Source: Campylobacterota bacterium (GTDB lineage: Bacteria > Campylobacterota > Campylobacteria > Campylobacterales > Sulfurovaceae). Taken from it: a stretch of DNA of 14,994 nt. This document shows positions 1-14,994 of this stretch, one piece after another. The position numbers were made by a program, and so were the translations under genes. The notes beneath the pieces were generated by a model. The model was not told the DNA's origin, did not search any database, and was given only the letters and a program-made list of their open reading frames with translations. Each line of letters starts with the position of its first letter. The first letter of the stretch is position 1. The stretch is from assembly GCA_034722955.1 (NCBI GenBank), contig JAYEOM010000055.1:1-14994 (forward strand). The letters run 5' to 3'.

Positions 1-645
1 TAATATAAATGGCAAAAGTGTATTGTACTCTCTGTCTCCGGCATCACCTAATCCAGGGATGATATACTTATCGTCATTGAGTCCTTCATCTATCTGGGCG
101 ATATATATATCAAGTTCCTCATAGGCATCTGTTACACACTTGAGACCTTCCGGTGATCCTATGATATTGAGTGAGATGATCTTGGATGCTCCGTGATCTT
201 TTAGTATCTCCATCGCATCTATGAGTGAGCCACCGGTGGCTATCATAGGGTCTACGAGAATGATCTGTTTTCCACGGCACTCAGGGAGGCGGTCATAATA
301 GAGCTTTGATCTATGTGTTGTCTCATCGCGTTTGATAGCCAAAAATCCTGCCTGTGCCTCTGGAAATAGCTCCATCATCGCCTCTAGCATCGGCAATCCT
401 GCACGCAAAACAGTGACAATCACAATACTGCTCTCATCGAGATAATCAAAAGAGTTATCTCCCTGCCAAGTCGGTACTATCTTTGGCTGCAAGGTAGAGG
501 AGTTGAGTGCGGCATCAGCGAGCAGAAGAGTGAGGTTTTTGACCATATGCCGAAACTGTGATGCCTCCATTCGTTCATCTCTCAGAGTGTTTACAAAGTG
601 AGTGGATAGTGATGTGTTGATCTCATGTATTTTGGAGTGATTCAT
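1..645 (-). CDS. upp: Uracil phosphoribosyltransferase (3' end runs off the window; not in the ORF track)
   Basis: Manual translation from ATG at 645: MNHSKIHEINTSLSTHFVNTLRDERMEASQFRHMVK...VTVLRAGLPM...AGFLAIKRDETT...YYDRLP...IILVDPMIATGGS...IYIAQIDEGLNDDKYIIPGLGDAGDREYNT. It contains the LRAG, PRPP-binding DPMxATGGS and PGLGDAGDR signatures. AGGAG SD lies upstream, and the ATG overlaps the helicase TGA (ATGA). The frame is open to position 1. Confidence 0.95.
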   Translation of the reverse strand, partial: MNHSKIHEINTSLSTHFVNTLRDERMEASQFRHMVKNLTLLLADAALNSSTLQPKIVPTWQGDNSFDYLDESSIVIVTVLRAGLPMLEAMMELFPEAQAGFLAIKRDETTHRSKLYYDRLPECRGKQIILVDPMIATGGSLIDAMEILKDHGASKIISLNIIGSPEGLKCVTDAYEELDIYIAQIDEGLNDDKYIIPGLGDAGDREYNTLLPFIL

Positions 646-3443
646 CGTCTTCTCCTGCTTCGATATGTTTTGTCTCCTCTATTTCTGCTGCCTCTACTGT
701 GACAGCTGTCACATATAGAAAATCTATAACTAAAGTCAAGTATCTTGCCGCATCTACGGCATTTTTTGACAAAGTGACCCTTTTGGAGTGAGTTCTCTAT
801 GAAGTGATTGAGTCTTACTCTTGCATCGATAGCCTTTTGGGTATCTCTGAAAAAGTCTGGAAACTTAAATGATAGCCAGAGGTAGAGTGAGATCTCTCTT
901 ACGCGATCTTCTGCATTGAGTAGCATATCATTGGTTTGTGCAAAAGCCGGTAGATCTCGCGGAGGGATATATAGTACCTCAGAACCCTTCTCTATGTTGC
1001 GTATATATCGGTGAAATACAGACTCTATATATGGAGAGGAGATGCTCGCCGGTGCACAGCTGAGATGGTATCTTGTCCTTAGATCCAGAGCGTACTCATC
1101 TACGATGGATGCTATCTCTAGCATCGACTCTATATTGGCCGCTTCAAATGGACCGTCAAACTCCATATTGTCTGCAAAAAAGGTGAGGATATCCATCAGA
1201 GTATCTCTCTCTAGTATCTCCCCTATGAGCAGTACATGCTCCAAGCTTGCCATCACACTAAAGGGGAGTTCTATATCAGTGAGTGGTGTATGAAACTGTC
1301 TGGATATAGTCTGTAGTGAAGCATCATCAAGTGTCCCTACAAAACCAGCCTCCTCTATGCCGTAGCGTCCTGCACGACCAGAGATCTGCAGTACCTCTGA
1401 TGGAGTTAACTCTCTGCGTCTCAAGCCATCAAATTTATTGTCTTTGGCAAATAGGATCGTCTTTATAGGCAGGTTGAGTCCCATCGCTATGGCATCAGTA
1501 GCTACTAGGATATCACTCTCACCTTCACGAAACCGTCTCGCCTCTTCTCGGCGTACTTCTGGTGAGAGATTTCCATAGACTACAGATACACGATAGTTGG
1601 ATGAGAGCTGTTGCTTGAGAGAGAGGACTTCACGACGGGAAAATGCGACAACAGCACTCTGTCTCTCTACTTTGTTGAGTGGAGTAGGGTTCTTTAGCAG
1701 TGTGAGTGGAGTCATCCTCTCGAAAGAGATCACCTCTAGCTCTTCTCCTAGGTAGTCACACAGCTCTATGACTGCTTGCAGTGCATTGGAGGATCCTGTC
1801 AGTATGATGGTCTTTGCCGGTGCTCCTATGAGTGCATTGGCCCAAGCCCAGCCTCTATCTCTGTCGTTGATCATCTGTATCTCATCTATGACACAGACCT
1901 CTACATCCACACTACTGTTGAGCATCTCGACAGTAGAGGAGATATGAGTAGACTCCTCATCTATGATCTCCTCTTCACCTGTGATCAGGGAGATATGCAG
2001 ACCATCTGCTTTGAGAGTTTCATACCCTTCAAGTGCCAGCAGTCGAAGTGGAGCTAGGTAGTATCCTGTATCTGCTGATTTTAGTTTCTCCAGAGCAGCG
2101 TATGTCTTTCCACTGTTGGTGGGACCTACATGAAAGATGATCTCTCTCTTGAGGCTTCTAGCTAGAGGAAAGAGATTTTTGAAGTCTCGTATGGTCTTCG
2201 CTAGCAACTCCTCTCGCATGCGTCTCTCTTTGAGTGGTTTGAGGTATTCGCCAAAGTGATAGAGGATACGCCTCCTGCTCTTATCTTTGATCTTTAGTGT
2301 TCTGGAGGTTTTGATCTGAGGTGCCAGAAACTGTATGATGAGTGACTCTATCTTGGATTTGGGTATATCCAACCCTAACGAAAGTTCAAGCATATGATCA
2401 TAGAGTGCATCTATGGCAAGTTTGAAATGGGTATGCAGCTCTTCGTTAATCCTGTTGAAATCTTCAGCGATCGGAAGCTCATCTCCTCTCCATATCGCTG
2501 AAAAGAGGAGTTCTTTGGTGTATGAGAGAGAGATCTTGTACTCTAGCTCCTCCCCAAACATAGTCAACATTTTTGATTTTTCGATGATGAAGTGATCGAT
2601 ACTCTCAAAAAGTTCATATCTATTATTGATACTAAGTAAAATCTTATCTAGCAGATCAAAGGAGAGTGGTATATGGTATAGATCTGTATCTGGCTGCATC
2701 TGTTTGATATGTCTGATCATCTGATCTTGGGAGAGCCAAGGGTGATCTTGTTGGGTGTGAGTTATGAAGGTATCTATGGACTTTTGTCTCTCTGTGATAG
2801 TTTTGCTCTTTTCATCTCTCAGCTGCTCGATGATCACTGCATCATCAAGCTCCCAGAGATCATCCATCGCAAGTGCTGCAGAGTGTGTTAGCAGTAGCTT
2901 GGTGAAGTCAACCTCACGCATCCCAAAATGATAGCTTTGATAAAACTCCATCTCATTGAGTGTATTGAACGATACTTCCAGTGCCTCTTCTAGTAACCTA
3001 AAGCGGCTCTGCAAGCGTATATAAGTCAGCTTCTGCCAAATCTTCTCTTCTGTTATTTTGGAACTTTTGGTCTCTATGAATGATTCGAGTATTCTGCTCT
3101 CCTCCTCTCTGCTATGCTCTATATCTTCGAGAAACATCAAGATCTTTCCTACCTTGTCTAGAGGTTTTGCTTTGATAGGGATCTCCTCTCTGCTCTCATC
3201 GATCGATAGATGACGAATGATATGTTCTCTGAGTACATGATCACCCTCACTCCATGCTCTGCGTAGTCCGCGTATCATCTCATCTCGCGAGAGTGAGGGA
3301 AGCTCAAGCTCCAAGAGCATAGAGAGTGCTACTAGTCTCTCGTCATCGAGTGTAGCTATCCCCTCATCAAAAGGGAGACCATCAAAGTAGTTGCGTATTT
3401 TATTGTTGAGTTTTATGAGGTATTTTCTTTTTTTCTTTGCCAT
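642..3443 (-). CDS. SUV3-like SF2 ATP-dependent RNA/DNA helicase with long N-terminal extension and C-terminal Cys4 motif
   Basis: 933-aa ORF with SUV3-family motifs: FPLAR, GPTNSGKT (Walker A), APLRLLA, DEIQM..DRDRGWAW, VAFSR, YGNLSPEVR, ATDAIAMGLNLPI, QISGRAGR. The C-terminus has CRRC-x12-CDSC and an Arg-rich tail. Confidence 0.9.
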   Translation of the reverse strand: MAKKKRKYLIKLNNKIRNYFDGLPFDEGIATLDDERLVALSMLLELELPSLSRDEMIRGLRRAWSEGDHVLREHIIRHLSIDESREEIPIKAKPLDKVGKILMFLEDIEHSREEESRILESFIETKSSKITEEKIWQKLTYIRLQSRFRLLEEALEVSFNTLNEMEFYQSYHFGMREVDFTKLLLTHSAALAMDDLWELDDAVIIEQLRDEKSKTITERQKSIDTFITHTQQDHPWLSQDQMIRHIKQMQPDTDLYHIPLSFDLLDKILLSINNRYELFESIDHFIIEKSKMLTMFGEELEYKISLSYTKELLFSAIWRGDELPIAEDFNRINEELHTHFKLAIDALYDHMLELSLGLDIPKSKIESLIIQFLAPQIKTSRTLKIKDKSRRRILYHFGEYLKPLKERRMREELLAKTIRDFKNLFPLARSLKREIIFHVGPTNSGKTYAALEKLKSADTGYYLAPLRLLALEGYETLKADGLHISLITGEEEIIDEESTHISSTVEMLNSSVDVEVCVIDEIQMINDRDRGWAWANALIGAPAKTIILTGSSNALQAVIELCDYLGEELEVISFERMTPLTLLKNPTPLNKVERQSAVVAFSRREVLSLKQQLSSNYRVSVVYGNLSPEVRREEARRFREGESDILVATDAIAMGLNLPIKTILFAKDNKFDGLRRRELTPSEVLQISGRAGRYGIEEAGFVGTLDDASLQTISRQFHTPLTDIELPFSVMASLEHVLLIGEILERDTLMDILTFFADNMEFDGPFEAANIESMLEIASIVDEYALDLRTRYHLSCAPASISSPYIESVFHRYIRNIEKGSEVLYIPPRDLPAFAQTNDMLLNAEDRVREISLYLWLSFKFPDFFRDTQKAIDARVRLNHFIENSLQKGHFVKKCRRCGKILDFSYRFSICDSCHSRGSRNRGDKTYRSRRRR

Positions 3444-3475: not shown

Positions 3476-4888
3476 TTAGTCAAGAGAGTAATAAATATCC
3501 AGATACTCTTCTGCACTCTTATCAAAGGATACATCACAGTGCATATTGTGTTGGGCTTTTAGTGTGAAATCATTGGAGGATTTATATAGTATGAGTGCTC
3601 GCTCTACCGCTCGGGTTAAACTATCTGGTTCTAAAGTCTCTATAGCTATACCTCGACCACAGATGGATGATGATAGGTCATCTATATCTATGATCGTATC
3701 ATATAATCCACCTACACGATGTACGATAGGGAGTGTACCGTAACGCAGAGAGATCAACTGATTGAGACCGCATGGCTCAAACGAGGAGGGCATCAGTAGA
3801 AAATCAGCAGAAGCATACATATTGTGAGAGAGGGACTCATCATATCCAAAAAGTACAGATAGGTTTGGATACTCTCTAGCTATATCTAGCATCTTCTCTG
3901 CCATAGTTGGGTCTCCCTCACCAAGAATAGCAATATTGAGTTCCATATTTAAGAGTTTGGGCAGGGTTTGGATGATGATATCAACCCCCTTCTGCCCTGT
4001 AAAGCGTCCTATAAAGATAAATAGTGCTCTTTTAGCGTACTCCAGACCACTCTTTTTGCAAAATGTATACTTATTTATCTTTTTATATTTTAATGTACCA
4101 GAGTGGTAGTTTTGAGTTATTGTCAGATCACTCTTGGGATTAAATAGTAGAGTATCTATACCATTTAAAATACCATACAGTTTATGCTGATAAACTCTCA
4201 AAAATCCATCAAGTCCACATCCAAAGTGTGGTTGCAGTATCTCTCTGGCATAACGAGGACTGACAGTAGTGACGGCATCACTATATGCGATACCAGCCTT
4301 CATATAGTTTATATCTCCCCAATACTCTATCTCATCAGGCTTGAAGTAAGAGGAGTCCAACCCTAATATTTTCATCGTTGTTTGCGGATAGATACCCTGA
4401 AAAGCTAGATTGTGGATCGTAAAAACAGTATGGAGTTTGGGGTTTATCTCTCTTGACCATAGTGCTGCTAGAGCAGTATGCCAGTCATTGAGATGCAGCA
4501 GATCCACGGCATAGAGTTGAGAGAGAGTCACCAGTGCTTTCGAAAAGATTCCAAAACGCAGATCATTGTTAGGGTAGTCTCCATGCTCATTACCATATGG
4601 TGCTTGATAACAGCACAGAAGAGGCTCATATAGAAATAGGGTTTCTACTCCTTGGTTGTAGCCTTGATATAGAGCTATTTTATAGTAGTTTTTACCTAGT
4701 TTGACCCACATGAACTGATCTAAAGATGAGATCCCAAAGTGAGTACGATCTATAAAGTCATAGAGTGGCATCACAGAGAGTACCTCTATAGATTTGGCCA
4801 GAGCTCTAGGGAGTGCCTGTGCTACATCAGCGAGACCACCTGTTTTGGCATAGGGATAGATCTCTGCCGAAGCAAAGAGAAGTTTCAT
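3476..4888 (-). CDS. glgA: Glycogen synthase (GT5)
   Basis: 470 aa with KTGGLADV, HLNDWHT, TIHNLAFQG, TTVSPRYA, GILNGID, GRFTGQKG and PSSFEPCGLNQL motifs intact. The start directly follows the galT-like stop (TAAATG). Confidence 0.95.
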   Translation of the reverse strand: MKLLFASAEIYPYAKTGGLADVAQALPRALAKSIEVLSVMPLYDFIDRTHFGISSLDQFMWVKLGKNYYKIALYQGYNQGVETLFLYEPLLCCYQAPYGNEHGDYPNNDLRFGIFSKALVTLSQLYAVDLLHLNDWHTALAALWSREINPKLHTVFTIHNLAFQGIYPQTTMKILGLDSSYFKPDEIEYWGDINYMKAGIAYSDAVTTVSPRYAREILQPHFGCGLDGFLRVYQHKLYGILNGIDTLLFNPKSDLTITQNYHSGTLKYKKINKYTFCKKSGLEYAKRALFIFIGRFTGQKGVDIIIQTLPKLLNMELNIAILGEGDPTMAEKMLDIAREYPNLSVLFGYDESLSHNMYASADFLLMPSSFEPCGLNQLISLRYGTLPIVHRVGGLYDTIIDIDDLSSSICGRGIAIETLEPDSLTRAVERALILYKSSNDFTLKAQHNMHCDVSFDKSAEEYLDIYYSLD

Positions 4889-5908
4889 TTAGATCTTTGC
4901 CTTACGCAGTAGCTTTGCTGCCTCTTCCGGAGTAACGGGATTGATGAGCATGCCTGTAGATAGTTCAAAGCCTCCCAATCGATATATTCGCGGCATAATA
5001 CGAATAGTCATGCGATAGTATTTTTTGAGGTGAGGGAAATAGATCTCATTTTCAAAATTACTATTGAGAGGTGCCATTTTGAAGGCAAGGTTGTAGTCAA
5101 AATCCTCCAACTGAAAATCTAAACGCTCAAAGACATCTTTCATGAGATAAGCCAAATCTGCAATATCATCACGGTTGAGATCATCGAGTGAACAGATAGT
5201 CCTCCTCGGTGCGATTATCACCTCAAAAGGAAAGCTCGAAGCGTAAGGGCAAAATGCAGTAAAATCACCTCTTTGGGATACTACTCTGCTCTTAACAAGT
5301 CGTTCATTTTCCAATATATCTTCTACTTTTCCGCGTCCATGTCTGCGGTAGTACTGTAGCTCTCTCTCCATAAGCCTGAGTGCATCATGGGGCATGATGG
5401 GAAGTGCTATGATCTGTGTATGCGGGTGCTGTTGCGTTGCACCTGCACACTGACCATGATTTTTAAAAACACTCACATAGATCAATCGCTTGTCATGGCG
5501 AAGATCGGCAATACGCGTTGAGATAGCTGATAGCCACTCCCCTATATGAGATACTTTCATGTTTGACATACGACAGTCATGTATAGGAGTATCGATGACA
5601 ATCTCATGTGCTCCTACACCAGGTCTAGACTCAAACATACCATCTACTTGCGAATGATCCTCCAGCTCAATCTGTACCGCTTTGTAGAGATTGGGTACTA
5701 TACGGACACTCCAGTGACTTGTATCTGCTTCATTGTCTCTAATGGCATAGATCTCCGGAGGTGTCATCTCCTCATGCCCCTCGCAAAATGGACAAGATTT
5801 TTCGAAACTATGTTTTGATTTTTTGGATAGTGTATCGGGTCGTCTCATACGCTCTGGTGCTATCAGAACATAGTGGTCATGTATTCTATCTCTTCGGATC
5901 TCAGACAT
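4889..5908 (-). CDS. galT: GalT-family (HIT superfamily) hexose-1-phosphate nucleotidyltransferase; substrate uncertain
   Basis: 339 aa with N-terminal RMRRP, Zn-binding CPFC, NLY, GAHEIVI, FKNHG..AGA, catalytic HPHTQ, and C-terminal GGFELSTG..INPVTPEEAA. SD AGAGG lies upstream. Confidence 0.8.
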   Translation of the reverse strand: MSEIRRDRIHDHYVLIAPERMRRPDTLSKKSKHSFEKSCPFCEGHEEMTPPEIYAIRDNEADTSHWSVRIVPNLYKAVQIELEDHSQVDGMFESRPGVGAHEIVIDTPIHDCRMSNMKVSHIGEWLSAISTRIADLRHDKRLIYVSVFKNHGQCAGATQQHPHTQIIALPIMPHDALRLMERELQYYRRHGRGKVEDILENERLVKSRVVSQRGDFTAFCPYASSFPFEVIIAPRRTICSLDDLNRDDIADLAYLMKDVFERLDFQLEDFDYNLAFKMAPLNSNFENEIYFPHLKKYYRMTIRIMPRIYRLGGFELSTGMLINPVTPEEAAKLLRKAKI

Positions 5909-5929: not shown

Positions 5930-7981
5930 TCAGACAAACCAGTTTTCTGCATAGGTTGTCTCTAGATTTATTTCAAGCTCTCCATACCCTGGAAGTGTTT
6001 GGATAATGATACCGTCCCGTTCGATCTCAAAACGAAGTTGAATATTTATAGCATCAACTGCTTCAAAATCGATACTGAGTTCAAACCAAGTTTTGCAAGC
6101 GACTTCGAGCTGTATACCATGGGATCTCTTATTGAAAGCCTTGGTACTGCATAGTGTTGAGAGATGGATATCAAACCGTGTATCAAAAGGCTCTATACGG
6201 ATATGTAGCTTATCACACTTCTGCAGAGCAGACATATCTCCCTCAAAGGCACAAAATATCTTCTTGTTGCTTTGACCAAATCGTATAGATTCGATCGGAC
6301 CGCGAACTCTATCCATAGTAGAGAATAGTTTTGTCTCATCTACAACTCCACTCCCTACCCACTCAAAAAATGAGTTTTGTTGACCATCTATTGTCGGTTC
6401 AATAGGAAATTTAGGTTGCAGAAGAAAGTCAACGCCACTTCGATCAGAGATGATAGGAGTATATAGATCATTTGGTGGTGATATCTTCATCAATAGATAG
6501 ATCTCTATGAGATGTGACCTGAAAAGTTCATCAAATTCAGCACCAAATTCAGTAACATGATCATCACCGTACCACCAAAACCAGTCAGAGCATTGGGCTG
6601 CAAGGAAGTGACTCTCTATCTTCTCCCTGACTCCACCCTCAAGACGCTTTTGGTGGTGTCTATAATCGCGTTTTGTCATATAGATCAACTCCCAGCCTCG
6701 TGTCTTTTCGGGATGCCCAACCCATGTGTTGAACTCTCCGTGTATCCAGCTTCCTGGTGCCAAGTAGGAGAGCTCTTTAGCCTCCTTCTGTGCTATTTGA
6801 TCCATCCCCAACATACTGCACCACTTGGTTTGTGCAAGTTTTCGATAGAGAGCATCAAAGAAATCAAAACCATTATTATGATAGAACTCCCAGGCGTTTT
6901 CACCATCAAGGATGACAAAAACTGTACGGTTATTACCATCTTTTGCTATAGAGTGCAGGGCAGAGACAAAGTGGTCTGCTGCACGCCCAGCTTCCCAGAA
7001 ACGATAGGTAAATCCCAATAGATCACTGAGACCATGATCGCGAAATCCTATAGTAAGTCCATTGTGTTTATATGGATAGTAGATTACATCGCGTTGATAA
7101 GTGCCTAGAGATTTGAACAGGATAGCTTCATCTGTAGCTATCCATTTGAGTCCCGCGTCACGGTATAGCTCGGTCGTTCTTTCGTCTACTGCCCCCTCCG
7201 CAGGCCAAAACCCTACAGGATCATGACCGAAAGTCTCTCTAAAGAGATGCTGAGCTTTAGATATTTGAAGCTTAGCATCATTTTCAAGAGATAGAGGGTG
7301 CTCAGGGATATTGGTACCGGGATGTGCTATCTGGGCACTATTCATATCTATAAGTAGAGGCAAGATAGGGTGGTTCAGAGGTGTTGTGGATAGTGATATG
7401 GTTCCATCTTGTTGAAGCAGAGCATAATAGGGGAAAATCATACCGATAAAATCACCAAGTATCTGAAGCAATACACTCTTCTGGTCACATCCAAAATGAC
7501 CATTTGAGTTTAGCATCTTTTGGATAGTTGCGTGGTGTGTGCGTATATAGTTACCACACCAAGCGAGAATAAACCATACTCCCATATCGCAAAGCTCATC
7601 ATCGTTATAGTACTCCAGATGATAAAGATGACGATAGGGCTCTATAGGCTCTATCATCGTATCATATGGTGCACTTTTGTACATTTTGATCATCCACTGG
7701 CGATCTGTCTCATTGATCTCAGATGGGTGCTGAACCCAAAGGGTAAAAAAACGATCATGTTTTACGATATCTTCTGCATAGAGATTGATCTGTTCGATCA
7801 GGGGAGGGGTGATGTTGAAAGTTGCTTTGAGTCCCTTGTGGCGTGCAAGCATCCAAGGCATATCGTAATAATCCTTGATAGCATGCAGAAAAACCCAAGG
7901 CATCTGCATGATACCTGAAGCATCACGGTAGTCAGGTTGATGCATATGCCATACAAAACTTAGATCTAAAGTATGACTCAT
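5930..7981 (-). CDS. Glycoside hydrolase family 57, amylopullulanase-like
   Basis: 683 aa with GH57 conserved regions WHMHQP, HPILPLL, GFWPAEGAV (Glu nucleophile), ILDGENAWEFY (Asp acid/base), GSWI and SDWFWWYG. There is no obvious signal peptide, and an extra C-terminal domain of about 170 aa is present. Confidence 0.88.
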   Translation of the reverse strand: MSHTLDLSFVWHMHQPDYRDASGIMQMPWVFLHAIKDYYDMPWMLARHKGLKATFNITPPLIEQINLYAEDIVKHDRFFTLWVQHPSEINETDRQWMIKMYKSAPYDTMIEPIEPYRHLYHLEYYNDDELCDMGVWFILAWCGNYIRTHHATIQKMLNSNGHFGCDQKSVLLQILGDFIGMIFPYYALLQQDGTISLSTTPLNHPILPLLIDMNSAQIAHPGTNIPEHPLSLENDAKLQISKAQHLFRETFGHDPVGFWPAEGAVDERTTELYRDAGLKWIATDEAILFKSLGTYQRDVIYYPYKHNGLTIGFRDHGLSDLLGFTYRFWEAGRAADHFVSALHSIAKDGNNRTVFVILDGENAWEFYHNNGFDFFDALYRKLAQTKWCSMLGMDQIAQKEAKELSYLAPGSWIHGEFNTWVGHPEKTRGWELIYMTKRDYRHHQKRLEGGVREKIESHFLAAQCSDWFWWYGDDHVTEFGAEFDELFRSHLIEIYLLMKISPPNDLYTPIISDRSGVDFLLQPKFPIEPTIDGQQNSFFEWVGSGVVDETKLFSTMDRVRGPIESIRFGQSNKKIFCAFEGDMSALQKCDKLHIRIEPFDTRFDIHLSTLCSTKAFNKRSHGIQLEVACKTWFELSIDFEAVDAINIQLRFEIERDGIIIQTLPGYGELEINLETTYAENWFV

Positions 7982-7982
7982 G

Positions 7983-10487
7983 CTACTCTTTTGACCAAGA
8001 TATTATCTTCTCTTCGTACTCTTGATAGATAGCAAGACCACTAGCTTCATCAGTTGCTTGGATAGAGAGATTGAGATGATCTGTATATTGATCAGGGATC
8101 ATCAAAATCCAATCTGTCTCATTGAGCCAAATCTTGACACCATCAGCAGATGAGGAGCGCTTATCTTTTGCATCTTCTAGGAATTTACGCATCATTTTTC
8201 CCTTGAGTGCCTGTGAACATTGGATTTTTGTCTGATGGTAGTAGAAATCTGCTACCTCTTTCACAAGATCTGATAGCTTGGTATCGTGCTTGATGATCAT
8301 CTCAAGTATCTTGATGGTAGCATACATAGAGTCTCTATATACAGAAAATTCAGTAAAAGCAAAATTGCCATCTACGGTAGCTATCAAGTCATACTGTTTG
8401 AGCTGCTCATATGTGAAGTTTGAATATTTACCCTGCTCAATTTCAAGATTATCATATTTGATAATATCAGGAGCCCATGTCGGTAGGAAGACTCGTTTTT
8501 TATTCTCTGCTGTCCCATCCATATTCATGAGTGCGAGTACTACTTGCAGTGCTGACTGCATAGATAGTATCACTCCATTATCACAAACTATGTCGAGTCT
8601 TTGACCATAGGGGTATATCAGAAATCCTGCATCTAGCTCTAGGCTCTTGACGACACTCTCCATATCTTTCGTAGATCTCTTAACAACAGATTGGAAGTTT
8701 GAAAGTCTATCGCTATCATAATAGTTGTTGAAGATCATGTTGTCAATACCGAGACTGTTTAGGATAGATGGTAAAACTTCAGAAGCAGACCCATGCATCG
8801 TATCGACAGCAACACGACAACCTACACAGCTAAAGTGTCTCTTCTCGAAGCTATCTATAACACTCCCTTTGTAGTTAATGCACTCTTCTAGGCGGTGAGA
8901 CTCTGAGACTTGACCGATTTGGCTGAAATCAACGCGTCTAAATGACTCTTTGAAATATGCTTTTTCGATCTTTTTGGCCAAATCGCTATTGATTCGAAGG
9001 GCTTCATCGTTAAAGAAGGTGACAACGGTAGTAGTCGTATCTTCTCTATCTAGTCTGAAGTAGACTCCTGCAACATACTCTGGCATACGAGAGAGGTTAA
9101 ATCGCAGAACAGATGAGGGGATACTCTTGAGGTCTACTACATTGATACCAGCTGCAAGCATACCACCTACAAAAGCTCTCTTGAGCATTCGTGAACCTTT
9201 GTGGTGATCTCTGCCTATGAGAACAGTAGAGCCTACCGGTATCTGTGCAGCAAAAGACTCTGCTAGTTTACTGGACATTTCGCAAGAGAACTCAATATTT
9301 GTCTTTCCTACTACCATCCCATTTTCAAAAATAGAATTTTTATATCGACTTCCCAAGATAACATTGCTGCTGACGATAGATGCAGCCTCTATATCTTTGT
9401 CAGGCCAGATTGTGACATCTTTCTCTACGGTGACAAGTTCACCTATTTTGCAACCCTCTGCGAGGATGATACCGGCTGTCATTTTGGAGTTTTTATCTAT
9501 GAGATTGTTGTTGCAGATGACAGCCATATCTATCTTGTTGCCTTTATTGATAGTAACACTATCCCATATAACGGAGTTGCTTACTTTGCTATCTTCGCCG
9601 ATAGTGACATTGTCACCGATGACAACATTTTTGAGCTTGGTTCTATCACCGATAGTGATATTTTTACCCAGCACTACTTTCCCGATGATCTCTACACCAT
9701 CTCCTAGAGTGTAGGACTCTTCGCTATAGAGTTCACCATCTGGATAGCTGACTAGCTCTCCTGGCATTTTGAAGTTGACACGGTTGCTCATGATATCTTC
9801 ATGAACTTCACGATAGCTATCTGGATTGCCGACATCTCTCCAGTACCCTTCAGCATTGCCTGCCATCAACTCTACACCCTCCGCCATCAGAAGAGGGAAG
9901 AGGTCTTTGGCAAAGTCAAAGTTTTCATTTTTGGGAATATACTCTAGTATCTCCGGTTCTATGATATAGATACCTGTGTTGATGGTATCACTAAACACTT
10001 CACCCCAACTCGGTTTTTCAAGAAACTTCTCTATGGTTCCCTCTTCATTGGCTATCACGACACCAAACTCTAGTGGATTCTCTACAGAAGTGAGAGTGAT
10101 GGTGAGTTGTGATTTTTTACTCTCATGATAGTCAAAGATCTTTTTGAAGTCAAAGTCTGTTACCAAGTCACCACTGATGATAATGAAGTTATCGTCACCT
10201 ATATACTCTTGTGCCAGCTTTACTGCACCAGCAGTACCATAGTCATCATCTGGGATAACATAGGTTATATTCATCCCAAATGCACTTCCATCACCAAAGT
10301 AGTCTTGGATAACCTCTGGCTTGAAATAGAGTAATACAATAAAATCTGTAATCCCCAAATCTCTGAGAGTTATCATTGTATTCTCCATCATTGGACGGTT
10401 GACAACGGGAAGCATTGGTTTGGGTCTTGAGTTTGTGAGTGGCTGGATCCGTGTACCGAATCCTCCTGCCATGACGACGGCTTTCAT
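7983..10487 (-). CDS. Sugar-1-phosphate nucleotidyltransferase (mannose-1-P guanylyltransferase-like) + left-handed beta-helix + degenerate phosphohexomutase-like domain
   Basis: 834 aa. The N-terminus has AGGFGTR..PLT..RPKPMLP, GTAGAV, SGD, FLEKP, INTGIY and YWRDVG. Hexapeptide repeats follow (VVLGKNITIGDRTKL, VVIGDNVTIGEDSKV). The C-terminal ~450 aa has PGM/PMM-type elements (IGRD...SRML, VDTMHGS, DGVKI). SD AAGGAG lies upstream. Confidence 0.88.
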   Translation of the reverse strand: MKAVVMAGGFGTRIQPLTNSRPKPMLPVVNRPMMENTMITLRDLGITDFIVLLYFKPEVIQDYFGDGSAFGMNITYVIPDDDYGTAGAVKLAQEYIGDDNFIIISGDLVTDFDFKKIFDYHESKKSQLTITLTSVENPLEFGVVIANEEGTIEKFLEKPSWGEVFSDTINTGIYIIEPEILEYIPKNENFDFAKDLFPLLMAEGVELMAGNAEGYWRDVGNPDSYREVHEDIMSNRVNFKMPGELVSYPDGELYSEESYTLGDGVEIIGKVVLGKNITIGDRTKLKNVVIGDNVTIGEDSKVSNSVIWDSVTINKGNKIDMAVICNNNLIDKNSKMTAGIILAEGCKIGELVTVEKDVTIWPDKDIEAASIVSSNVILGSRYKNSIFENGMVVGKTNIEFSCEMSSKLAESFAAQIPVGSTVLIGRDHHKGSRMLKRAFVGGMLAAGINVVDLKSIPSSVLRFNLSRMPEYVAGVYFRLDREDTTTTVVTFFNDEALRINSDLAKKIEKAYFKESFRRVDFSQIGQVSESHRLEECINYKGSVIDSFEKRHFSCVGCRVAVDTMHGSASEVLPSILNSLGIDNMIFNNYYDSDRLSNFQSVVKRSTKDMESVVKSLELDAGFLIYPYGQRLDIVCDNGVILSMQSALQVVLALMNMDGTAENKKRVFLPTWAPDIIKYDNLEIEQGKYSNFTYEQLKQYDLIATVDGNFAFTEFSVYRDSMYATIKILEMIIKHDTKLSDLVKEVADFYYHQTKIQCSQALKGKMMRKFLEDAKDKRSSSADGVKIWLNETDWILMIPDQYTDHLNLSIQATDEASGLAIYQEYEEKIISWSKE

Positions 10488-10560
10488 AATCTATAGCTCC
10501 TTTTGTGATATTAACTCTGATTATGTAATAAGAGACTCCATTGCATAGTCTGAGTTCTAA

Positions 10561-10566
10561 AGTATA
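10561..10566 (-). promoter_or_regulatory. Candidate -10 box (TATACT) for the NTase-GH57-galT-glgA genes
   Basis: The minus strand reads tttttaggttTATACTttagaac in the only long intergenic gap (10488-10648). An alternative TACAAT lies at 10615-10620. The context is AT-rich, so a chance match is possible. Confidence 0.3.
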
Positions 10567-10571
10567 AACCT

Positions 10572-10602
10572 AAAAAGATAGAGTATTGAACCTATCCCTT
10601 TT
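10572..10602 (-). terminator. Possible weak intrinsic terminator after the CBM48 gene
   Basis: Minus strand AAAAGGGATAG-GTTCAATACT-CTATCTTTTT: a GATAG/CTATC stem extended by G-U pairs and ending in a U5 run, about 45 nt after the stop codon. Confidence 0.3.
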
Positions 10603-10648
10603 GTCTATCGATCTATTGTATAGCTAACTCTTTAAATAGTAACTAAAA

Positions 10649-10930
10649 TTAGAGTTCTAAAAGTGAATTTTCACTGCCAAATGGTGATGCTACACACCCC
10701 AACTCTTCATCGCACTTCCACTCATCTCCATTGATGCTATAGCCGAACTCATAAGATTGGCCTCCATCCAAAAGTCTTCTCAGGTAAAAATCACCATTTT
10801 TCTTCTTTTTCATAGGTTCACTTTTCCACTCATTCCACTCTCCTGAAACAGAAGCACTCTCTAGATTGTCTTCTGCCGGCAGAGTAAAGGTAACCCAAGC
10901 CTTATTCCCTTTTTTATTGATTTTTATCAT
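10649..10930 (-). CDS. Stand-alone isoamylase early-set / CBM48 (AMPK beta-like glycogen-binding) protein
   Basis: 93 aa with VTFTLP, ASVSGEWNEW...PMKKKKNGDF, YEFGYSINGDEWKCD and SPFGSENSLL, matching the CBM48/AMPK-beta glycogen-binding pattern. SD AGGAG lies upstream. Confidence 0.85.
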   Translation of the reverse strand: MIKINKKGNKAWVTFTLPAEDNLESASVSGEWNEWKSEPMKKKKNGDFYLRRLLDGGQSYEFGYSINGDEWKCDEELGCVASPFGSENSLLEL

Positions 10931-10951
10931 TTGATTCTCCTAGTTATAGTT

Positions 10952-11911
10952 TTAATCGAGCAGTTTAAGTGCATCGAGATACTTTTGAGGTAGTTGGTAT
11001 TTGTTGGATACTACCTCTTGAATTTCCATAAGTTTAAACTCACCATGTTGGTGAACAACAACTTTGTTGGAGTTATTGTGTGACAAGAGGTGGTCAACAG
11101 CAGCGATAGTAAAGGCAAATGCCATGAGTCGATCACGGACTGTTGGATTTCCTCCTCGTTGAATATGCCCTAGTATACTGACGCGAGTCTCCAGACCGAT
11201 CGTATCCTGAAGCCATTTGTGTACTTCTCCTGTCTGATTGGTGCCTTCTGAGACGATAGCAAGAGCATAATTACGCCCATCTTTTACCTCTTTTTGCAGG
11301 CGTTTCCCAACCTTCTCATAGTCAAATTGGGTCTCTGGGATGACACAGATCTCTGCACCACTGATCATAGCTGAGACTATTGCTAAATATCCACAGTCTC
11401 TACCCATCACTTCGATCAGAAATGCACGGTTGAAGGAGGAGGCTGTATCGCGGATCTTATCAAGGGCATCACGGATGACATTGAGTGCTGTATCTACACC
11501 TAGACAGTAGTCTGTACCGTAGATATCATTATCTATGGTTGAGGGGATTCCTACAAAGTTGAGTTTAAACTCTGAGCTGAACCTCTCCATAGCACGAAAT
11601 GATCCATCACCACCAAGTACAACAAGACCAGTAATACCATGTGCTTTTAGATTTTCATATGCCTGTTTACGGTACTCATATTCAAAGAAGCGTTTGGAGC
11701 GTGATGAGCGGACAATAGTACCGCCACGGTGAAGAATACCGGCAACATCAATATGTGTAGCTGGCTTGATCTTGTTGTCGATCAAGCCCTCAAGACCATC
11801 ATAGATCAGAAAAGGCTCCTCTCCAAGCTTGTATGTATAATCTACAAACTTTTTAATCGCAGGGTTCATCCCCGGAGCATCACCACCGGAAGACATGATT
11901 GCCAAAGCCAT
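10952..11911 (-). CDS. pfkA: ATP-dependent 6-phosphofructokinase
   Basis: 319 aa with SGGDAPGMN, RGGT, GGDGS (Gly, ATP-type), TIDND, EVMGR and LGHIQRGG. The start overlaps the pgk stop (TAATG). Confidence 0.95.
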   Translation of the reverse strand: MALAIMSSGGDAPGMNPAIKKFVDYTYKLGEEPFLIYDGLEGLIDNKIKPATHIDVAGILHRGGTIVRSSRSKRFFEYEYRKQAYENLKAHGITGLVVLGGDGSFRAMERFSSEFKLNFVGIPSTIDNDIYGTDYCLGVDTALNVIRDALDKIRDTASSFNRAFLIEVMGRDCGYLAIVSAMISGAEICVIPETQFDYEKVGKRLQKEVKDGRNYALAIVSEGTNQTGEVHKWLQDTIGLETRVSILGHIQRGGNPTVRDRLMAFAFTIAAVDHLLSHNNSNKVVVHQHGEFKLMEIQEVVSNKYQLPQKYLDALKLLD

Positions 11912-13131
11912 TAACTCTCCTCCTCTTTTCGGTCTAGATTGCGAAATCCAGGTAGAATTTTTCCTTCAAGTAGTTCAAGACTAGCACCACCACCAGTAGA
12001 TATAAAGCTAAAGTTATCTGCCTCTCCGGCTCTATCCACAGCATCGGCAGTATCTCCGCCACCTACGATAGTATAGGCATAAGAGTCAGCAATGGCACTT
12101 GCCAATTTAAATGTACCTTTGGAAAATTTATCGATCTCATAGATCCCCATAGGACCGTTCCAGATGATAGTATTGGAGAGCTCTATCGCTTCACTGAAGA
12201 GTTTGACGGTTGCCGGACCGATATCTACTGCACTAAAGTTTTCAAGTACATCTTGTGCAGGAACAACTTTGACATCGATCGGAGACTCGACTGAATCTGT
12301 GATAACAACATCAACAGGAAGGTAGATCTTGACACCGTTTTCCCGTGCATGTTGCAGTACTACCCCAGCCGTTTCGATATACTCCTCCTCATAAAGTGAG
12401 TTCTGCATATCGTAACCCAATGCTTTCAGAAAAGTGTTGCTCATAGCACCGCCGATGATCAGCTTGTCGACCTTTTTCAGTACTGCTTCAAGCAGAGTGA
12501 TCTTGGATGATATCTTTGCTCCGCCAATCACTAGTGCTATAGGACGGACAGGGTTCTCTAGTGCTTTAGAAAATGCTTCGATCTCTCGTATCATCAAAAA
12601 GCCTGCTACTTTTGTATGGACAAACTCTGTGATACCGTAAGTGGAGGCGTGTTCACGATGTGAAGTGCCAAATGCATCATTGACATATATATCACATATA
12701 GATGCCAATTGTCTAGATAGCTCTGAATCATTCTGCTTCTCACCCTCATGAAAGCGTATATTTTCTAGTAAAAATACACGCTCTAGTGAACAGGTTGCGA
12801 TCTCATCTTTGTATCCGGCAAAGTTCTCTACAAACTCTACTTTTTTGTGTAGCAGTCTCTCAAGACGCTTTATAATATGTCTGAGACTATATCTCTCCTC
12901 ATATTTTCCCTTTGGTCGTCCAAAGTGTGATACTAGAGTGATGGAGCAAGCGTTATGGTCAATGCAGTAGTTGATCGTAGGAAGAGCAGCACGGATACGA
13001 CGATCATCCGTGATATTGTTATGAGAATCTACAGGGACATTGAAGTCTACTCGAATCAAAACACGCTTTCCGGTTACATCGATATCTCTGAGACTTTTGA
13101 CACCATGCATTATCTTTAGATTGGAAGTCAT
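11911..13131 (-). CDS. pgk: Phosphoglycerate kinase
   Basis: 406 aa with RVDFNVP, SHFGRPKG, LLENIRF, NDAFGTSHR, GGAKISSK, WNGPMG, GGGDT and ISTGGGASLELLEG. Confidence 0.97.
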   Translation of the reverse strand: MTSNLKIMHGVKSLRDIDVTGKRVLIRVDFNVPVDSHNNITDDRRIRAALPTINYCIDHNACSITLVSHFGRPKGKYEERYSLRHIIKRLERLLHKKVEFVENFAGYKDEIATCSLERVFLLENIRFHEGEKQNDSELSRQLASICDIYVNDAFGTSHREHASTYGITEFVHTKVAGFLMIREIEAFSKALENPVRPIALVIGGAKISSKITLLEAVLKKVDKLIIGGAMSNTFLKALGYDMQNSLYEEEYIETAGVVLQHARENGVKIYLPVDVVITDSVESPIDVKVVPAQDVLENFSAVDIGPATVKLFSEAIELSNTIIWNGPMGIYEIDKFSKGTFKLASAIADSYAYTIVGGGDTADAVDRAGEADNFSFISTGGGASLELLEGKILPGFRNLDRKEEES

Positions 13132-13143
13132 CGTATCATATCC

Positions 13144-14790
13144 CTATATGTTGAACATTCGTTCGTAGTACTCTGCTGCCATTCGAGAAGAGTCAAAATC
13201 ATACTCCACTTCGGACATCGCATTTTTCATGATACTAATCCACTGTTTTTGATCATTATAGTAGAGTGGAATTATTTTATCTTCTAGGATATCCATCATG
13301 TGTTTGTTGTCTAATCTATCCTGCTCTTCGATAGGCATAGTGTGGTCTAGTGCCGGAATAGTAAAAGAATTTTTGCCATCTTTGGCAAACTCCGGATGCC
13401 AGCCATCATCTATAGAGAAGTGGATTGAGCCATTCATAGCTGCTGTCATACCGCTCGTACCGCTTGCTTCTCGTGTGATTCTAGGTGTATTGAGCCATAT
13501 ATCACTCCCCTGCTTGAGAATTTTAGAGAGAGTCAACTCATATCCTACAAGAACGGCAATATTATCATAGTAGTGGCTGATATCTATAAGCTCATTGAAG
13601 ATATCAATCGATCCATAGTCCGTAGGGTATGGCTTGCCTGCCCAGATGATCTGTACAGGCATATCACTACTGTTCACAATTTTGTTAAATCGCTCCAAGT
13701 CATACTTGAGAAGTCCCGGTCGCTTATACTCTGCAAAACGGCGTGCCCATACGATCGTCAACACATTAGGGTCAAACATCTTCCCGGTCTGGTCTGCAAC
13801 TACATCAAAAAGATTCTTTTTGAGATGTTTTTTTCTAGCATACAACTCATACTCTTCATGCTCATCAAGTGCTCGAATCAGTGTCTTATCGGTCCAGTAC
13901 TTTTTGTTCTGTGCATTGGTGATAGATATAATGTCACAGCGATTTTCGACACCTTCCCACATCTCATTGGCTACTTTACCATGGATTTTTGAGACAGCAT
14001 TGGCTATTTTGGCACTTCTGAGTGCACCGACAGTGAGACTAAAGTCATCACCATCGTAATAACCGCTCATCTCTCTGACAGTTTCGAGAGAGTGTCCATT
14101 GAAGAAGCCCATCTCATGAAGGAAATGGATATTGTGTACCTCATTTCCAGCCGCTTCAGGTGTATGTGTTGTGAAGACAACATGCTCACGCAAAGCTTCC
14201 ATAGATTGATAGTGTTTTTTATAAAGTTCATATACTAGAGGGAGTGCATGTCCTTCATTCATATGATATAGATCTACTTTATGGTTGAGTGCTTCTAGCA
14301 CTTTGGTTCCACCAATACCGAGTACTATCTCTTGAGCAACTCTAGTTCTCTCGTTGCCATCATAGAGTTTATGAGTGATAGTTCTTGCCAAATAGTCATT
14401 TTCATCTGTATTAGTAGATAGTAGGATCATAGGAGCTGTACCGAACACTTCAGGACGAAGCAAAAATGCTTTGACTCTCACATCTTGACCATTGATATTG
14501 ACTGTGACATGCAGATCCAACTCTTCTAGAAAATAGTAAAATTTCCTTGTATAGGTTGGTTTGAGTGATCGATCCTCGTTACGAGCTTGATCGTAGTATC
14601 CAAAACTCCAGAGTAGTCCTACGCCTACCATATTTTGTTTGAGGTCATAAGCACTTCTCATATGAGATCCAGCGAGGAAGCCCAAGCCCCCTGAGTAGAT
14701 CTTGAGTGCTTGATCGATAGCAAATTCCATAGAGAAATAGGCAACACTCTTCTCGAAGCGTTGGTCTATATCATAGCTGTGTAGATTCAT
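13144..14790 (-). CDS. glgP: Short GT35 alpha-glucan (glycogen) phosphorylase-family protein, 548 aa, with Thr in place of the PLP lysine
   Basis: Start reassigned to ATG at 14790 (MNLHSYDIDQRF; AAGGA SD upstream), because the track's 14928 start lies inside gap. Motifs: YFSMEF, YSGGLG, HMNEGH, FTTHTP, NAVSKIHG, ARRFAEYKR, AGKPYP, DIWLNTP, EASGTSGMTAAMNG. Confidence 0.88.
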   Translation of the reverse strand: MNLHSYDIDQRFEKSVAYFSMEFAIDQALKIYSGGLGFLAGSHMRSAYDLKQNMVGVGLLWSFGYYDQARNEDRSLKPTYTRKFYYFLEELDLHVTVNINGQDVRVKAFLLRPEVFGTAPMILLSTNTDENDYLARTITHKLYDGNERTRVAQEIVLGIGGTKVLEALNHKVDLYHMNEGHALPLVYELYKKHYQSMEALREHVVFTTHTPEAAGNEVHNIHFLHEMGFFNGHSLETVREMSGYYDGDDFSLTVGALRSAKIANAVSKIHGKVANEMWEGVENRCDIISITNAQNKKYWTDKTLIRALDEHEEYELYARKKHLKKNLFDVVADQTGKMFDPNVLTIVWARRFAEYKRPGLLKYDLERFNKIVNSSDMPVQIIWAGKPYPTDYGSIDIFNELIDISHYYDNIAVLVGYELTLSKILKQGSDIWLNTPRITREASGTSGMTAAMNGSIHFSIDDGWHPEFAKDGKNSFTIPALDHTMPIEEQDRLDNKHMMDILEDKIIPLYYNDQKQWISIMKNAMSEVEYDFDSSRMAAEYYERMFNI

Positions 14791-14824
14791 AAAATTCCTT
14801 GATTCGTTTATAATTTTTACTATA

Positions 14825-14994
14825 TTATTTGTTGCCGACAAAGACACACATATCAACCAAACGGCTACTGTATCCCCACTCGTTATCGTACCAAGCCAAT
14901 ACTTTGACTGTCTTACCATCAATAACATTGGTCATGTCAGGTACAAAAGTAGAGCTGTAGGTTGATCCGATAAAGTCACTCGATACTCTCTTGT
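14825..14994 (-). CDS. gap: Type I glyceraldehyde-3-phosphate dehydrogenase, 3' fragment (not in the ORF track)
   Basis: Manual translation: KRVSSDFIGSTYSSTFVPDMTNVIDGKTVKVLAWYDNEWGYSSRLVDMCVFVGNK* with the diagnostic VSSDF and WYDNEWGYS. Stop TAA is at 14825-14827. Confidence 0.93.
   Translation of the reverse strand, partial: KRVSSDFIGSTYSSTFVPDMTNVIDGKTVKVLAWYDNEWGYSSRLVDMCVFVGNK

Follow-up and report, generated by a model that had tools for sequence, protein, structure and literature searches.

A short glycogen phosphorylase homologue of Campylobacterota with threonine in place of the PLP-binding lysine

The gene at positions 13144..14790 (minus strand) of the window, by which we mean the whole analysed stretch of 14,994 nucleotides from contig JAYEOM010000055.1 of the Campylobacterota assembly GCA_034722955.1, encodes an alpha-glucan (glycogen) phosphorylase homologue, P0001, in which a threonine occupies the position of the lysine that forms the Schiff base with PLP. 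This loss of the lysine is real and conserved, and P0001 is a further example of a lysine-less branch that has already been published. Classical GT35 phosphorylases are dimeric proteins of about 800 aa with PLP on Lys680 (rabbit numbering), and the use of PLP for its phosphate group is classically illustrated by glycogen phosphorylase. From the sequence state and how well it is conserved, the place of P0001 in its clade, the fold, the catalytic residues that it has kept and the genomic context of its gene, we infer with a probability of roughly three in four that P0001 is an active glycogen phosphorylase that works without PLP and belongs to the short lysine-less branch of TIGR02094/GP1. The protein would cleave the ends of alpha-1,4 glucans with orthophosphate to yield glucose-1-phosphate by means of the conserved glucan- and phosphate-binding residues, and PLP would not be covalently held.

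The reading frame from 13144 to 14790 is uninterrupted and translates into a protein of 548 aa. The longest ORF at this locus extends to 14928 (594 aa), and the added part runs into the 3' end of gap, which is read in a different frame. Because an AAGGAA box precedes the ATG at 14790 and the homologues have 546-557 aa in nearly all matches listed, the start at 14790 was accepted, as was the intact frame that the earlier note had reported with it. None of 80 genomic loci contains an internal stop. The view that the gene is under selection was also supported, since dN/dS amounted to 0.048 and 0.052 in comparisons with the two nearest orthologues, which indicates strong purifying selection; these values are rough, with dS being saturated in 33 of the 37 pairwise comparisons and just four dN/dS values having been obtained.

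The threonine, Thr449, is encoded by ACA at 13444..13446 (minus strand) within the motif EASGTSGMTAAMNG (DNA cga gaa gca agc ggt acg agc ggt atg ACA gca), and both the DNA and the alignment to Segatella copri glycogen phosphorylase (ScGP) bear out its position. It aligns with the lysine in the motif EASGTSGEKAEMNG of ScGP chain 9l6i, a residue that, to judge from the motif and from R507, R508 and K513, whose offsets match, probably corresponds to the PLP lysine Lys609 described for ScGP in the accessible text of PMC12912991. Among the 120 closest proteins listed, the query included, the motif reads SGMT in 118 and SGMS in 2. The best 80 genomic loci have Thr (62) or Ser (18) at this site, encoded by 10 different codons that comprise all four for Thr and all six for Ser, and Thr or Ser is likewise found in 238 of 238 further homologues. 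Short Bacteroidota homologues had been suggested to carry SGMTA, and indeed Thr is present in 36 of 37 Bacteroidota loci. The caveat that the threonine might be a base-call error or a private AAA-to-ACA mutation, ACA being one substitution away from AAA, can be dismissed as extremely improbable in view of this conservation and codon diversity, and the contigs of two Logan runs that span 13144-13495 are identical to the assembly, also at 13445 where a read check had been proposed, although the assembly may derive from these very runs, which are therefore not independent. The contig of a further run, X3, ends at 13439, before the Thr449 codon. The canonical class with covalent PLP (EC 2.4.1.1) has the Schiff-base lysine of EASGTxxMK, whereas P0001 has Thr449 at this position; P0001 is therefore not classed as a canonical PLP enzyme.

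In other respects P0001 has the features of a phosphorylase. It matches TIGR02094 with 452.3 bits (cut-off 191.7) and PF00343 (GT35), over residues 293-465 only, with 53.4 bits (cut-off 27). Its AF2 model (pLDDT 95.6, pTM 0.93) shows the GT-B phosphorylase fold, and the best Foldseek matches are glycogen phosphorylases, with TMq values of 0.90-0.91 for ScGP and 0.75-0.82 for the E. coli and rabbit enzymes. Among solved structures, ScGP (PDB 9l6i / 20yr; PNAS 2026, PMC12912991) comes closest (phmmer E 5e-75, 30% identity). Like P0001 it belongs to the TIGR02094 family, and the two agree in the aligned substrate-binding positions (Arg-Arg, Lys and His), but according to the accessible part of the publication ScGP differs in having 852 aa, extra N- and C-terminal domains, a pentameric structure, regulation by AMP and PLP on Lys609. 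The classical GT35 enzymes (rabbit muscle GP, E. coli GlgP and MalP) share with P0001 the GT-B fold and equivalents of the motifs GGLG, THT, KR..YK and EASGT, although their identity to P0001 is only 15-18%; their reaction is taken to be common to P0001, whose activity is predicted.

The motifs YSGGLGFLAG, HMNEGHALP, VFTTHTPEA, WARRFAEYKRPG, ISITNAQNKKYW and REASGTSGMTAAMNG are retained in P0001. Translation and alignment thus agree with the earlier description of GGLG, NEGH, THT and RRFAEYKR as being kept, and the set of glucan- and phosphate-binding residues (GGLG, the His of THT, the Arg-Arg and Lys of RRxxxYKR, and Glu, Ser, Gly and Thr of EASGT) is present in full. The GGLG loop comprises residues 34-37 (14680..14691, minus strand). 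In the 73 rows of alignment A2, G35 does not vary, and G34, L36 and G37 each reach at least 90% conservation. RRFAEYKR spans residues 350-357 (13720..13743, minus strand). H209, R350, R351 and K356 align to H316, R507, R508 and K513 of ScGP, for which the roles were taken from the accessible text of PMC12912991. All 80 loci keep N292, R350, R351, K356, E441 and T445, 78 keep H209, the two gaps being due to truncated loci, and all seven residues are invariant in the 238 further homologues. The segment at residues 290-295 (13906..13923, minus strand) reads ITNAQN instead of the usual ITNGVH, as had been noticed, and does so in 118 of the 120 closest proteins listed and in 68 of the 80 loci. At position 295, His is found in 114 of 117 canonical rows, and Asp or Asn in the lysine-less rows.

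Nineteen of 136 aligned rows lack the PLP lysine. In a FastTree phylogeny built with the trait columns removed, these rows lie on one side of a single branch with an SH-like support of 100, which corresponds to one change, and the same branch was recovered in an IQ-TREE quick tree with an SH-aLRT of 100; both trees cover the top-scoring relatives of the query only, and the lysine-less Methanococcus maripaludis enzyme MmGP is in neither of them. The replacement residues in the clade are Ser (13), Thr (3), Gly (2) and Ala (1). The 18 lysine-less representatives have 529-571 aa, and P0001, with its 548 aa, lacks the N-terminal extension seen in forms of 700-850 aa. Among the relatives sampled, the lysine-less proteins are one clade of about 550 aa, to which P0001 belongs by its length, its replaced lysine and its placement. 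The question whether Thr marks a conserved clade of this size can therefore be answered in the affirmative on the basis of the 120 proteins listed, the 80 loci and the tree.

Within the clade, P0001 was placed in a Campylobacterota subclade that adjoins Bacteroidota. The nearest non-Campylobacterota relatives are Bacteroidota with 53-59% identity, and the best 80 loci of the genome-contig scan all belong to Campylobacterota or Bacteroidota. In two cluster look-ups the only names were Bacteroidota, Vampirovibrionales, Sungbacteria and Paceibacterota, and a search seeded with P0122 returned Bacteroidota names only. In the IQ-TREE quick tree, the Campylobacterota are nested among the Bacteroidota. 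However, an AU test does not reject a tree in which the Bacteroidota are held together (p-value of 0.797), and this constrained tree is 15.4 lnL units better. We claim no transfer donor.

A lysine-less phosphorylase has been characterised before. The accessible part of the work on MmGP (bioRxiv 10.1101/2024.09.29.615707) describes this Lys-to-Thr protein as an active glycogen phosphorylase that yields Glc-1-P from glycogen and in which absorbance, fluorescence, a cyanohydrin assay and mass spectrometry (intact mass, and peptide mapping with 89% coverage) revealed no PLP; in the MmGP model bulky side chains fill the pyridoxal pocket, and a second bound orthophosphate was proposed from modelling. 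From what is described there, MmGP and P0001 are alike in being short phosphorylases of roughly 60 kDa with Thr for the EASGTxMK lysine and with GGLG and other active-site residues kept, and both hosts still make PLP. The study, by Gonzalez-Ordenes et al., has reportedly also come out in a FEBS J version of 2025 (doi 10.1111/febs.70182). On the MmGP side, Ser instead of Thr is reported for some Methanococcales, and MmGP is an archaeal monomer with complex regulation by metabolites, whereas P0001 is bacterial.

A phylogeny published in 2026 (Nat Commun, PMC13324651) describes, in its accessible text, a GP1 clade VIII of lysine-less phosphorylases of about 550 aa in Bacteroidota, Akkermansia and others. 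Archaea are placed there in a sub-clade made up mainly of FCB-group bacteria, the loss of the lysine coincides with the split of clade VIII into sub-clades, and MmGP is cited. P0001 is like these proteins in its length and in its replaced lysine, which in clade VIII gives way to Thr, Gly or Ala (PMC13324651), and the Bacteroidota named for the clade (Flavobacteria, Chitinophagia and Cytophagia) are the nearest relatives that P0001 has outside Campylobacterota. Campylobacterota are not named in the main text of PMC13324651, as judged by words beginning with Campylobacter, Epsilon or Sulfur. The relationship of P0001 to MmGP thus appears probable from the published clade description, taken together with the single origin of the lysine-less state among the relatives sampled.

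The earlier note had suggested four functions for the protein, namely non-covalent binding of PLP, use of another cofactor, NDP-glucose-dependent transfer and non-catalytic glycogen binding. None of these is favoured, as the characterised lysine-less MmGP is described as phosphorolysing glycogen without PLP. The earlier note had also stated that its idea would fall if the Thr clade were already biochemically characterised; such a characterisation largely exists, because MmGP is active without PLP as far as the accessible account goes. By analogy with the proposal made for MmGP, a second bound orthophosphate may stand in for the PLP 5'-phosphate as acid/base in P0001.

The reading that survives best beside that of a PLP-independent phosphorylase is one in which P0001 still depends on PLP, either because a lysine of the preceding helix, Lys426, has taken over from position 449 of the EASGT helix in forming the aldimine or because PLP is bound non-covalently. 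The earlier note had proposed to search for another lysine reaching the pocket, for instance from NAQNKKYW. A co-varying lysine was indeed found, but it lies elsewhere, at Lys426 (codon AAG, 13513..13515, minus strand). Lys426 is present in all 19 lysine-less rows and in none of the 117 lysine-bearing representatives, so that positions 449 and 426 show a perfectly reciprocal pattern. All 80 loci have Lys426 too, as do 237 of 238 further homologues, and it was seen only in lysine-less forms, being absent from all 15 canonical Campylobacterota forms and from the other canonical forms examined; ScGP has Val at this position. The invariant Lys426, together with the retained G444 and T445, leaves room for PLP being bound in another way. 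In addition, E441 of the motif is kept, and the genome encodes PdxJ and hence makes PLP, so that the loss of the lysine is not due to a shortage of PLP. Against continued dependence on PLP, MmGP carries the same Lys-to-Thr change and was described as being without PLP by several methods, and the pyridoxal pocket in the MmGP model is described as filled by bulky side chains. Moreover, about 20 further positions shift together with the loss of the lysine, for example A387P, F413 to I or V, and W465 to other residues, a pattern that fits a remodelled pocket. We therefore consider a PLP-dependent P0001 unlikely.

Pro387 in AGKP (codon at 13630..13632, minus strand) is a second signature of the clade. 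It is found in 17 of the 19 lysine-less rows, whereas the 117 canonical rows have Ala (104), Ser (11) or Cys (2), and ScGP has Ala. All 80 loci have Pro387, and the 238 further homologues have Pro (215), Thr (22) or Ala (1). Lys426, Pro387 and the other signature positions are not mentioned in the accessible text of PMC13324651, and the co-variation of Lys426 with the loss of the cofactor lysine is absent from the published accounts to the extent that these are accessible. Tentatively, Lys426 may represent a functional relocation that arose at the loss of the cofactor lysine together with A387P and the other roughly 20 changes, which would line the pocket. Its amine could then hold the second orthophosphate at the former site of the PLP 5'-phosphate or, with lower likelihood, tether PLP anew in vivo. 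If this is true, the 449/426 swap would be a mechanistic switch that enables a cofactor-free phosphorylase. The co-varying residue set led by Lys426 provides specific mutants for testing catalysis without PLP.

The genomic context points to a role in glycogen metabolism. The phosphorylase gene lies between gap and pgk, as had been stated from the sequence and as is confirmed by profile matches, in a tight row of genes on the minus strand. The 3' end of gap (glyceraldehyde-3-phosphate dehydrogenase; 14825..14994; Gp_dh_C, E 2.2e-6) is located 34 nt upstream of the phosphorylase start, and pgk (phosphoglycerate kinase; 11911..13131; PF00162, 490 bits) follows 12 nt downstream. Further along are pfk for an ATP-dependent 6-phosphofructokinase (10952..11911; PF00365 with 333 bits, NF002872 with 345 bits at a cut-off of 253), a gene for a 93-aa CBM48 / AMPK1_CBM-like glycogen-binding mini-protein (10649..10930; PF16561, 28.8 bits, cut-off 26.8), and a gene for a sugar-1-phosphate nucleotidyltransferase fused to a PGM-like domain (7983..10487; profile matches), in which the catalytic motifs searched for in the PGM-like domain were not found. 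The row continues with a GH57 enzyme assigned to family level (5930..7981; PF03065, 163 bits), a GalT-like hexose-1-phosphate nucleotidyltransferase (4889..5908; TIGR00209, 114 bits, cut-off 102) and the glycogen synthase gene glgA (3476..4888; TIGR02095, 485 bits, cut-off 328). A promoter and terminator scan of 10400-14994 did not exceed shuffled sequences (17 versus 11.4 +/- 3.8 expected, and 3 versus 2.5).

PF00343 has one match in the whole genome, which is 99.97% complete, and P0001 is thus its only phosphorylase; glgA and three other PGM-family genes are likewise present, as are genes for MalQ and for a GH57 and a GH13 enzyme. Glycogen genes adjoin the lysine-less phosphorylase in 28 of 41 Campylobacterota loci, and of the 47 sampled Campylobacterota genomes with a lysine-less form, 37 have no other phosphorylase.

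These observations bear on two further readings. A changed reaction, in which P0001 would be an NDP-glucose-dependent glucosyltransferase or a phosphorylase of another substrate with the GT-B nucleotide site replacing PLP, could be suggested by the GT-B fold that is common to GlgA, by the remodelled pocket residues and by a match of residues 129-545 to the GlgA model NF001898 (32 bits, far under the cut-off of 603). However, the row contains a dedicated glgA, P0001 is the sole phosphorylase of a genome that synthesises glycogen, MmGP is described as releasing Glc-1-P from glycogen, and R350, R351, K356 and H209, which align to substrate- and phosphate-binding residues of ScGP, are invariant. 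This makes a changed reaction quite improbable. Even less credit is due to a non-catalytic glycogen-binding or regulatory pseudo-enzyme, since the absence of a residue long held essential and the presence of a pseudo-PGM domain and a small CBM protein among the neighbours are outweighed by the invariant aligned catalytic residues, the dN/dS of about 0.05, the frequent occurrence as sole phosphorylase and the activity described for the archaeal lysine-less enzyme.

Because its gene forms a tight same-strand row with gap, pgk, pfk and genes for glycogen synthesis, P0001, as a PLP-independent phosphorylase, would feed stored glycogen into glycolysis in this Sulfurovum-like bacterium. A PLP-free branch challenges the textbook mechanism based on the PLP phosphate, a point that was already made by the Methanococcus enzyme and the 2026 phylogeny. 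Our present findings add that in free-living sulfur-oxidising Campylobacterota the main phosphorylase is the lysine-less form, which is the only one in 37 of 47 carrying genomes, and that it is linked in these bacteria to genes for glycolysis and glycogen synthesis.

The gene at 13144-14790 on the minus strand encodes a 548-residue alpha-glucan phosphorylase of the TIGR02094/GT35 type, in which Thr449 (codon ACA, 13446-13444) occupies the site where canonical relatives hold the PLP Schiff-base lysine. It retains the motifs YSGGLG, NEGH, TTHTP, ITNAQN and RRFAEYKR together with REASGTSGMTAAMNG, and the earlier note's account of this phosphorylase, its threonine, the ACA codon and the motifs was correct in every detail. 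The closest solved relative is the Segatella copri glycogen phosphorylase (ScGP; 9l6i; phmmer E value 5.4e-75), whose segment EASGTSGEKAEMNG places a lysine opposite Thr449. In the same alignment, H209, R350, R351 and K356 of the query correspond to H316, R507, R508 and K513 of ScGP. The motif, together with the agreement in offset at R507, R508 and K513, identifies the aligned lysine as Lys609, which the accessible text on ScGP describes as the PLP-holding residue (PMC12912991).

An exhaustive profile search returned 7909 relatives with E values of at most 1e-3. The best 150 cluster representatives included 135 of near full length, and these were aligned with the query (136 rows). Site 449 was occupied by Lys in 117 rows, and the others had Ser (13), Thr (3), Gly (2) or Ala (1). 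In trees built from the query's top-scoring relatives only, and after removal of the trait columns, the 19 rows lacking this lysine formed one side of a single branch (FastTree support 100, one change), with eight short lysine-bearing representatives as sister. All 19 are 529-571 residues long, so that the expectation of a clade of about 550 residues marked by Thr was borne out, with Ser, Gly and Ala as further occupants of the site. Named cluster members of this clade belong to Bacteroidota, Vampirovibrionales, Sungbacteria and Paceibacterota.

The loss of the lysine at 449 is coupled to changes at other positions. Every lysine-less row (19/19) carries Lys at position 426, which the lysine-bearing rows fill with Val (75 of 117), Thr (18), Ile (12), Tyr (3) or other residues (9), never with Lys. 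Pro stands at position 387 in 17/19 lysine-less rows, whereas the 117 canonical rows have Ala (104), Ser (11) or Cys (2); Asn occupies position 399 in 16/19 as opposed to Gln, Lys or Arg; and position 295 is Asp or Asn, whereas 114/117 canonical rows have His. A three-residue insertion at 114-116 is largely confined to the lysine-less clade. No intermediate state was found when the eight sister representatives were checked at the signature positions. We also scanned one-genome-per-species contigs with the lysine-less motif, which matched at least 600 stretches, and analysed the best 80 loci; 238 further homologues came from two word-index searches. Lys426 was present in 80/80 and 237/238 of these, respectively, and Pro387 in 80/80 and 215/238 (Thr 22, Ala 1). 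In an AF2 model the signature positions fall at C-domain strand ends or in the helices next after them (387 after strand 379-384, 413 in strand 411-414, 422 and 426 in helix 419-428, 449 in helix 445-452), which we take to be where the cofactor pocket of the rabbit enzyme is located. On this reading, the signature positions would lie at the cofactor pocket.

Phosphorylases of this type have already been described, and the query is a further example. According to the available part of a preprint (bioRxiv 10.1101/2024.09.29.615707), Methanococcales glycogen phosphorylases have Thr, sometimes Ser, at the lysine site, and the recombinant Methanococcus maripaludis enzyme (MmGP), a monomer of ~60 kDa, released Glc-1-P from glycogen, while absorbance, fluorescence, a cyanohydrin assay and mass spectrometry all failed to detect PLP. 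The MmGP model suggests a filled pyridoxal pocket (Phe26) and a possible second orthophosphate in place of the PLP phosphate. That part of the preprint presents the lysine change as Methanococcales-specific and does not mention a compensating lysine. The accessible text of a later study (PMC13324651, Nat Commun 2026), which cites the MmGP work in its published form (FEBS J), describes GP1 clade VIII as proteins of ~550 residues with Thr, Gly or Ala for the lysine, the lysine-replaced taxa being Flavobacteria, Chitinophagia, Cytophagia, Akkermansia and Gastranaerophilales. Its main text, to which our check was confined, contains no words beginning with Campylobacter, Epsilon or Sulfur. Among the matches listed, no publication joined glycogen phosphorylase with Campylobacterota names, which is not proof of absence.

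We consider it probable (roughly 0.75) that the gene encodes a glycogen phosphorylase that is active and independent of PLP. The catalytic residues in the alignment do not vary, and dN/dS was ~0.05 against the two nearest orthologues, with dS close to saturation and no value computable for 33 of the 37 pairs. The phosphorylase is the only PF00343 match in its 99.97%-complete genome, which also encodes glgA, a GH57 enzyme, one GH13 enzyme, MalQ and three further PGM-family genes. The main alternative is that PLP is held by a relocated lysine, Lys426, or non-covalently. The MmGP data, in the accessible part of the preprint, speak against this alternative, which we regard as unlikely. PLP is available to the host, because PdxJ is encoded in the genome. 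The earlier interpretation survives in part: the conserved Thr/Ser and the lysine-less clade of ~550 residues stand, and its non-covalent PLP is disfavoured. A sequencing error or private mutation behind Thr449, raised earlier as a caveat, is ruled out by the conservation of Thr or Ser across homologues: SGMT in 118 and SGMS in 2 of the 120 closest proteins listed (79-100% identity, query counted), Thr in 62 and Ser in 18 of the best 80 loci, where every one of the four Thr and six Ser codons is used, and Thr in 230 and Ser in 8 of the 238 further homologues. Contigs of two public runs span codon 449 without difference, as the earlier note had wished to see checked in the reads, which adds little because both runs may be the source of the assembly. 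The sole difference found across the gene is at position 13814, with A in contigs of three public runs and T in the window.

The phosphorylase belongs to a tight row of minus-strand genes: the 3' end of gap (14825-14994), the phosphorylase, pgk (11911-13131), pfk (10952-11911), a 93-residue CBM48-like protein (10649-10930), an 834-residue fusion of a sugar-1-phosphate nucleotidyltransferase (NTP_transferase, LbH) with a PGM-like domain (7983-10487), a GH57 enzyme (5930-7981), a GalT-like hexose-1-phosphate nucleotidyltransferase (4889-5908) and glgA (3476-4888). Its reading frame starts at the ATG at 14790; a longer frame of 594 residues was rejected, as it overlaps gap and its extra N-terminus is absent from homologues, nearly all of 546-557 residues. 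Glycogen genes adjoin the phosphorylase in 28/41 Campylobacterota loci as opposed to 1/37 Bacteroidota loci, and pgk or pfk in 16/41 as opposed to 0/37. The CBM48-like protein, placed between pfk and the fusion, matches AMPK1_CBM as its sole module (28.8 bits, cut-off 26.8) and recurs in several Campylobacterota loci. The fusion has tblastn matches near the phosphorylase in many Campylobacterota loci; its PGM/PMM-like part looks inactive, because neither the phosphoserine motif [ST][PGA]SH[NIC]P nor the metal motif DxDxDR was found in it (YPYGQR stands at residue 625). The GalT-like gene, flanked by the GH57 gene and glgA, shows conserved synteny in many Campylobacterota loci and may serve nucleotide-sugar exchange or have an ADP-glucose phosphorylase-like activity in the glycogen cluster. 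Directly downstream of glgA lies a gene with a Suv3-type RNA helicase architecture, here in a bacterium (642-3443, 933 residues; DEXQc_Suv3, Suv3_C_1 and SUV3_C domains), followed on the same strand by upp.

Among the best 80 loci, 41 from Campylobacterota (labels include Sulfurovum, Sulfurimonas, Sulfuricurvum, Arcobacter, Nitratifractor, Nitratiruptor and Sulfurospirillum) share 59-84% identity with the query, and 37 from Bacteroidota share 53-59%. In a 57-row tree from a quick IQ-TREE run, the query groups with 15 Campylobacterota rows in a single clade (SH-aLRT 99) that lies among Bacteroidota. Since an AU test did not reject a topology holding Bacteroidota together (p-value of 0.797; constrained tree better by 15.4 lnL units), we claim no donor, and only that the lysine-less phosphorylases of the two phyla appear from their sequences to be nearest neighbours. 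A Pseudomonadota-labelled bin, the Asaia bogorensis MAG (L072), contains a lysine-less phosphorylase that resembles those of Bacteroidota (55% identity, ITNAQN, SGMT); faulty binning or labelling, rather than transfer, possibly explains it.

A sample of 401 Campylobacterota genomes contained a phosphorylase match in 53, the window's own genome counted, and in 0/118 and 0/158 genomes of the two largest family groups. The short form (at least 59% identity) occurs in 47 genomes and a form of ~700-730 residues in 15, with both in 10 of those 15; one further genome has only short weak matches. In one genome, a fragment of 50 residues (G187:C20:274437-274586), which shares 76% identity with the phosphorylase N-terminus and ends in TAA, lies directly upstream of an intact orthologue. 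All 15 long forms have Lys449, Val, Ile or Leu at 426, Ala387 and His295. The genomes with both forms, the long one lysine-bearing, are G014, G032, G034, G040, G072, G091, G172, G190, G264 and G320 (loci L085-L094), and in the first four the lysine-less and canonical genes lie within ~5 kb of each other. These ten genomes offer natural material for comparing the two phosphorylase types.
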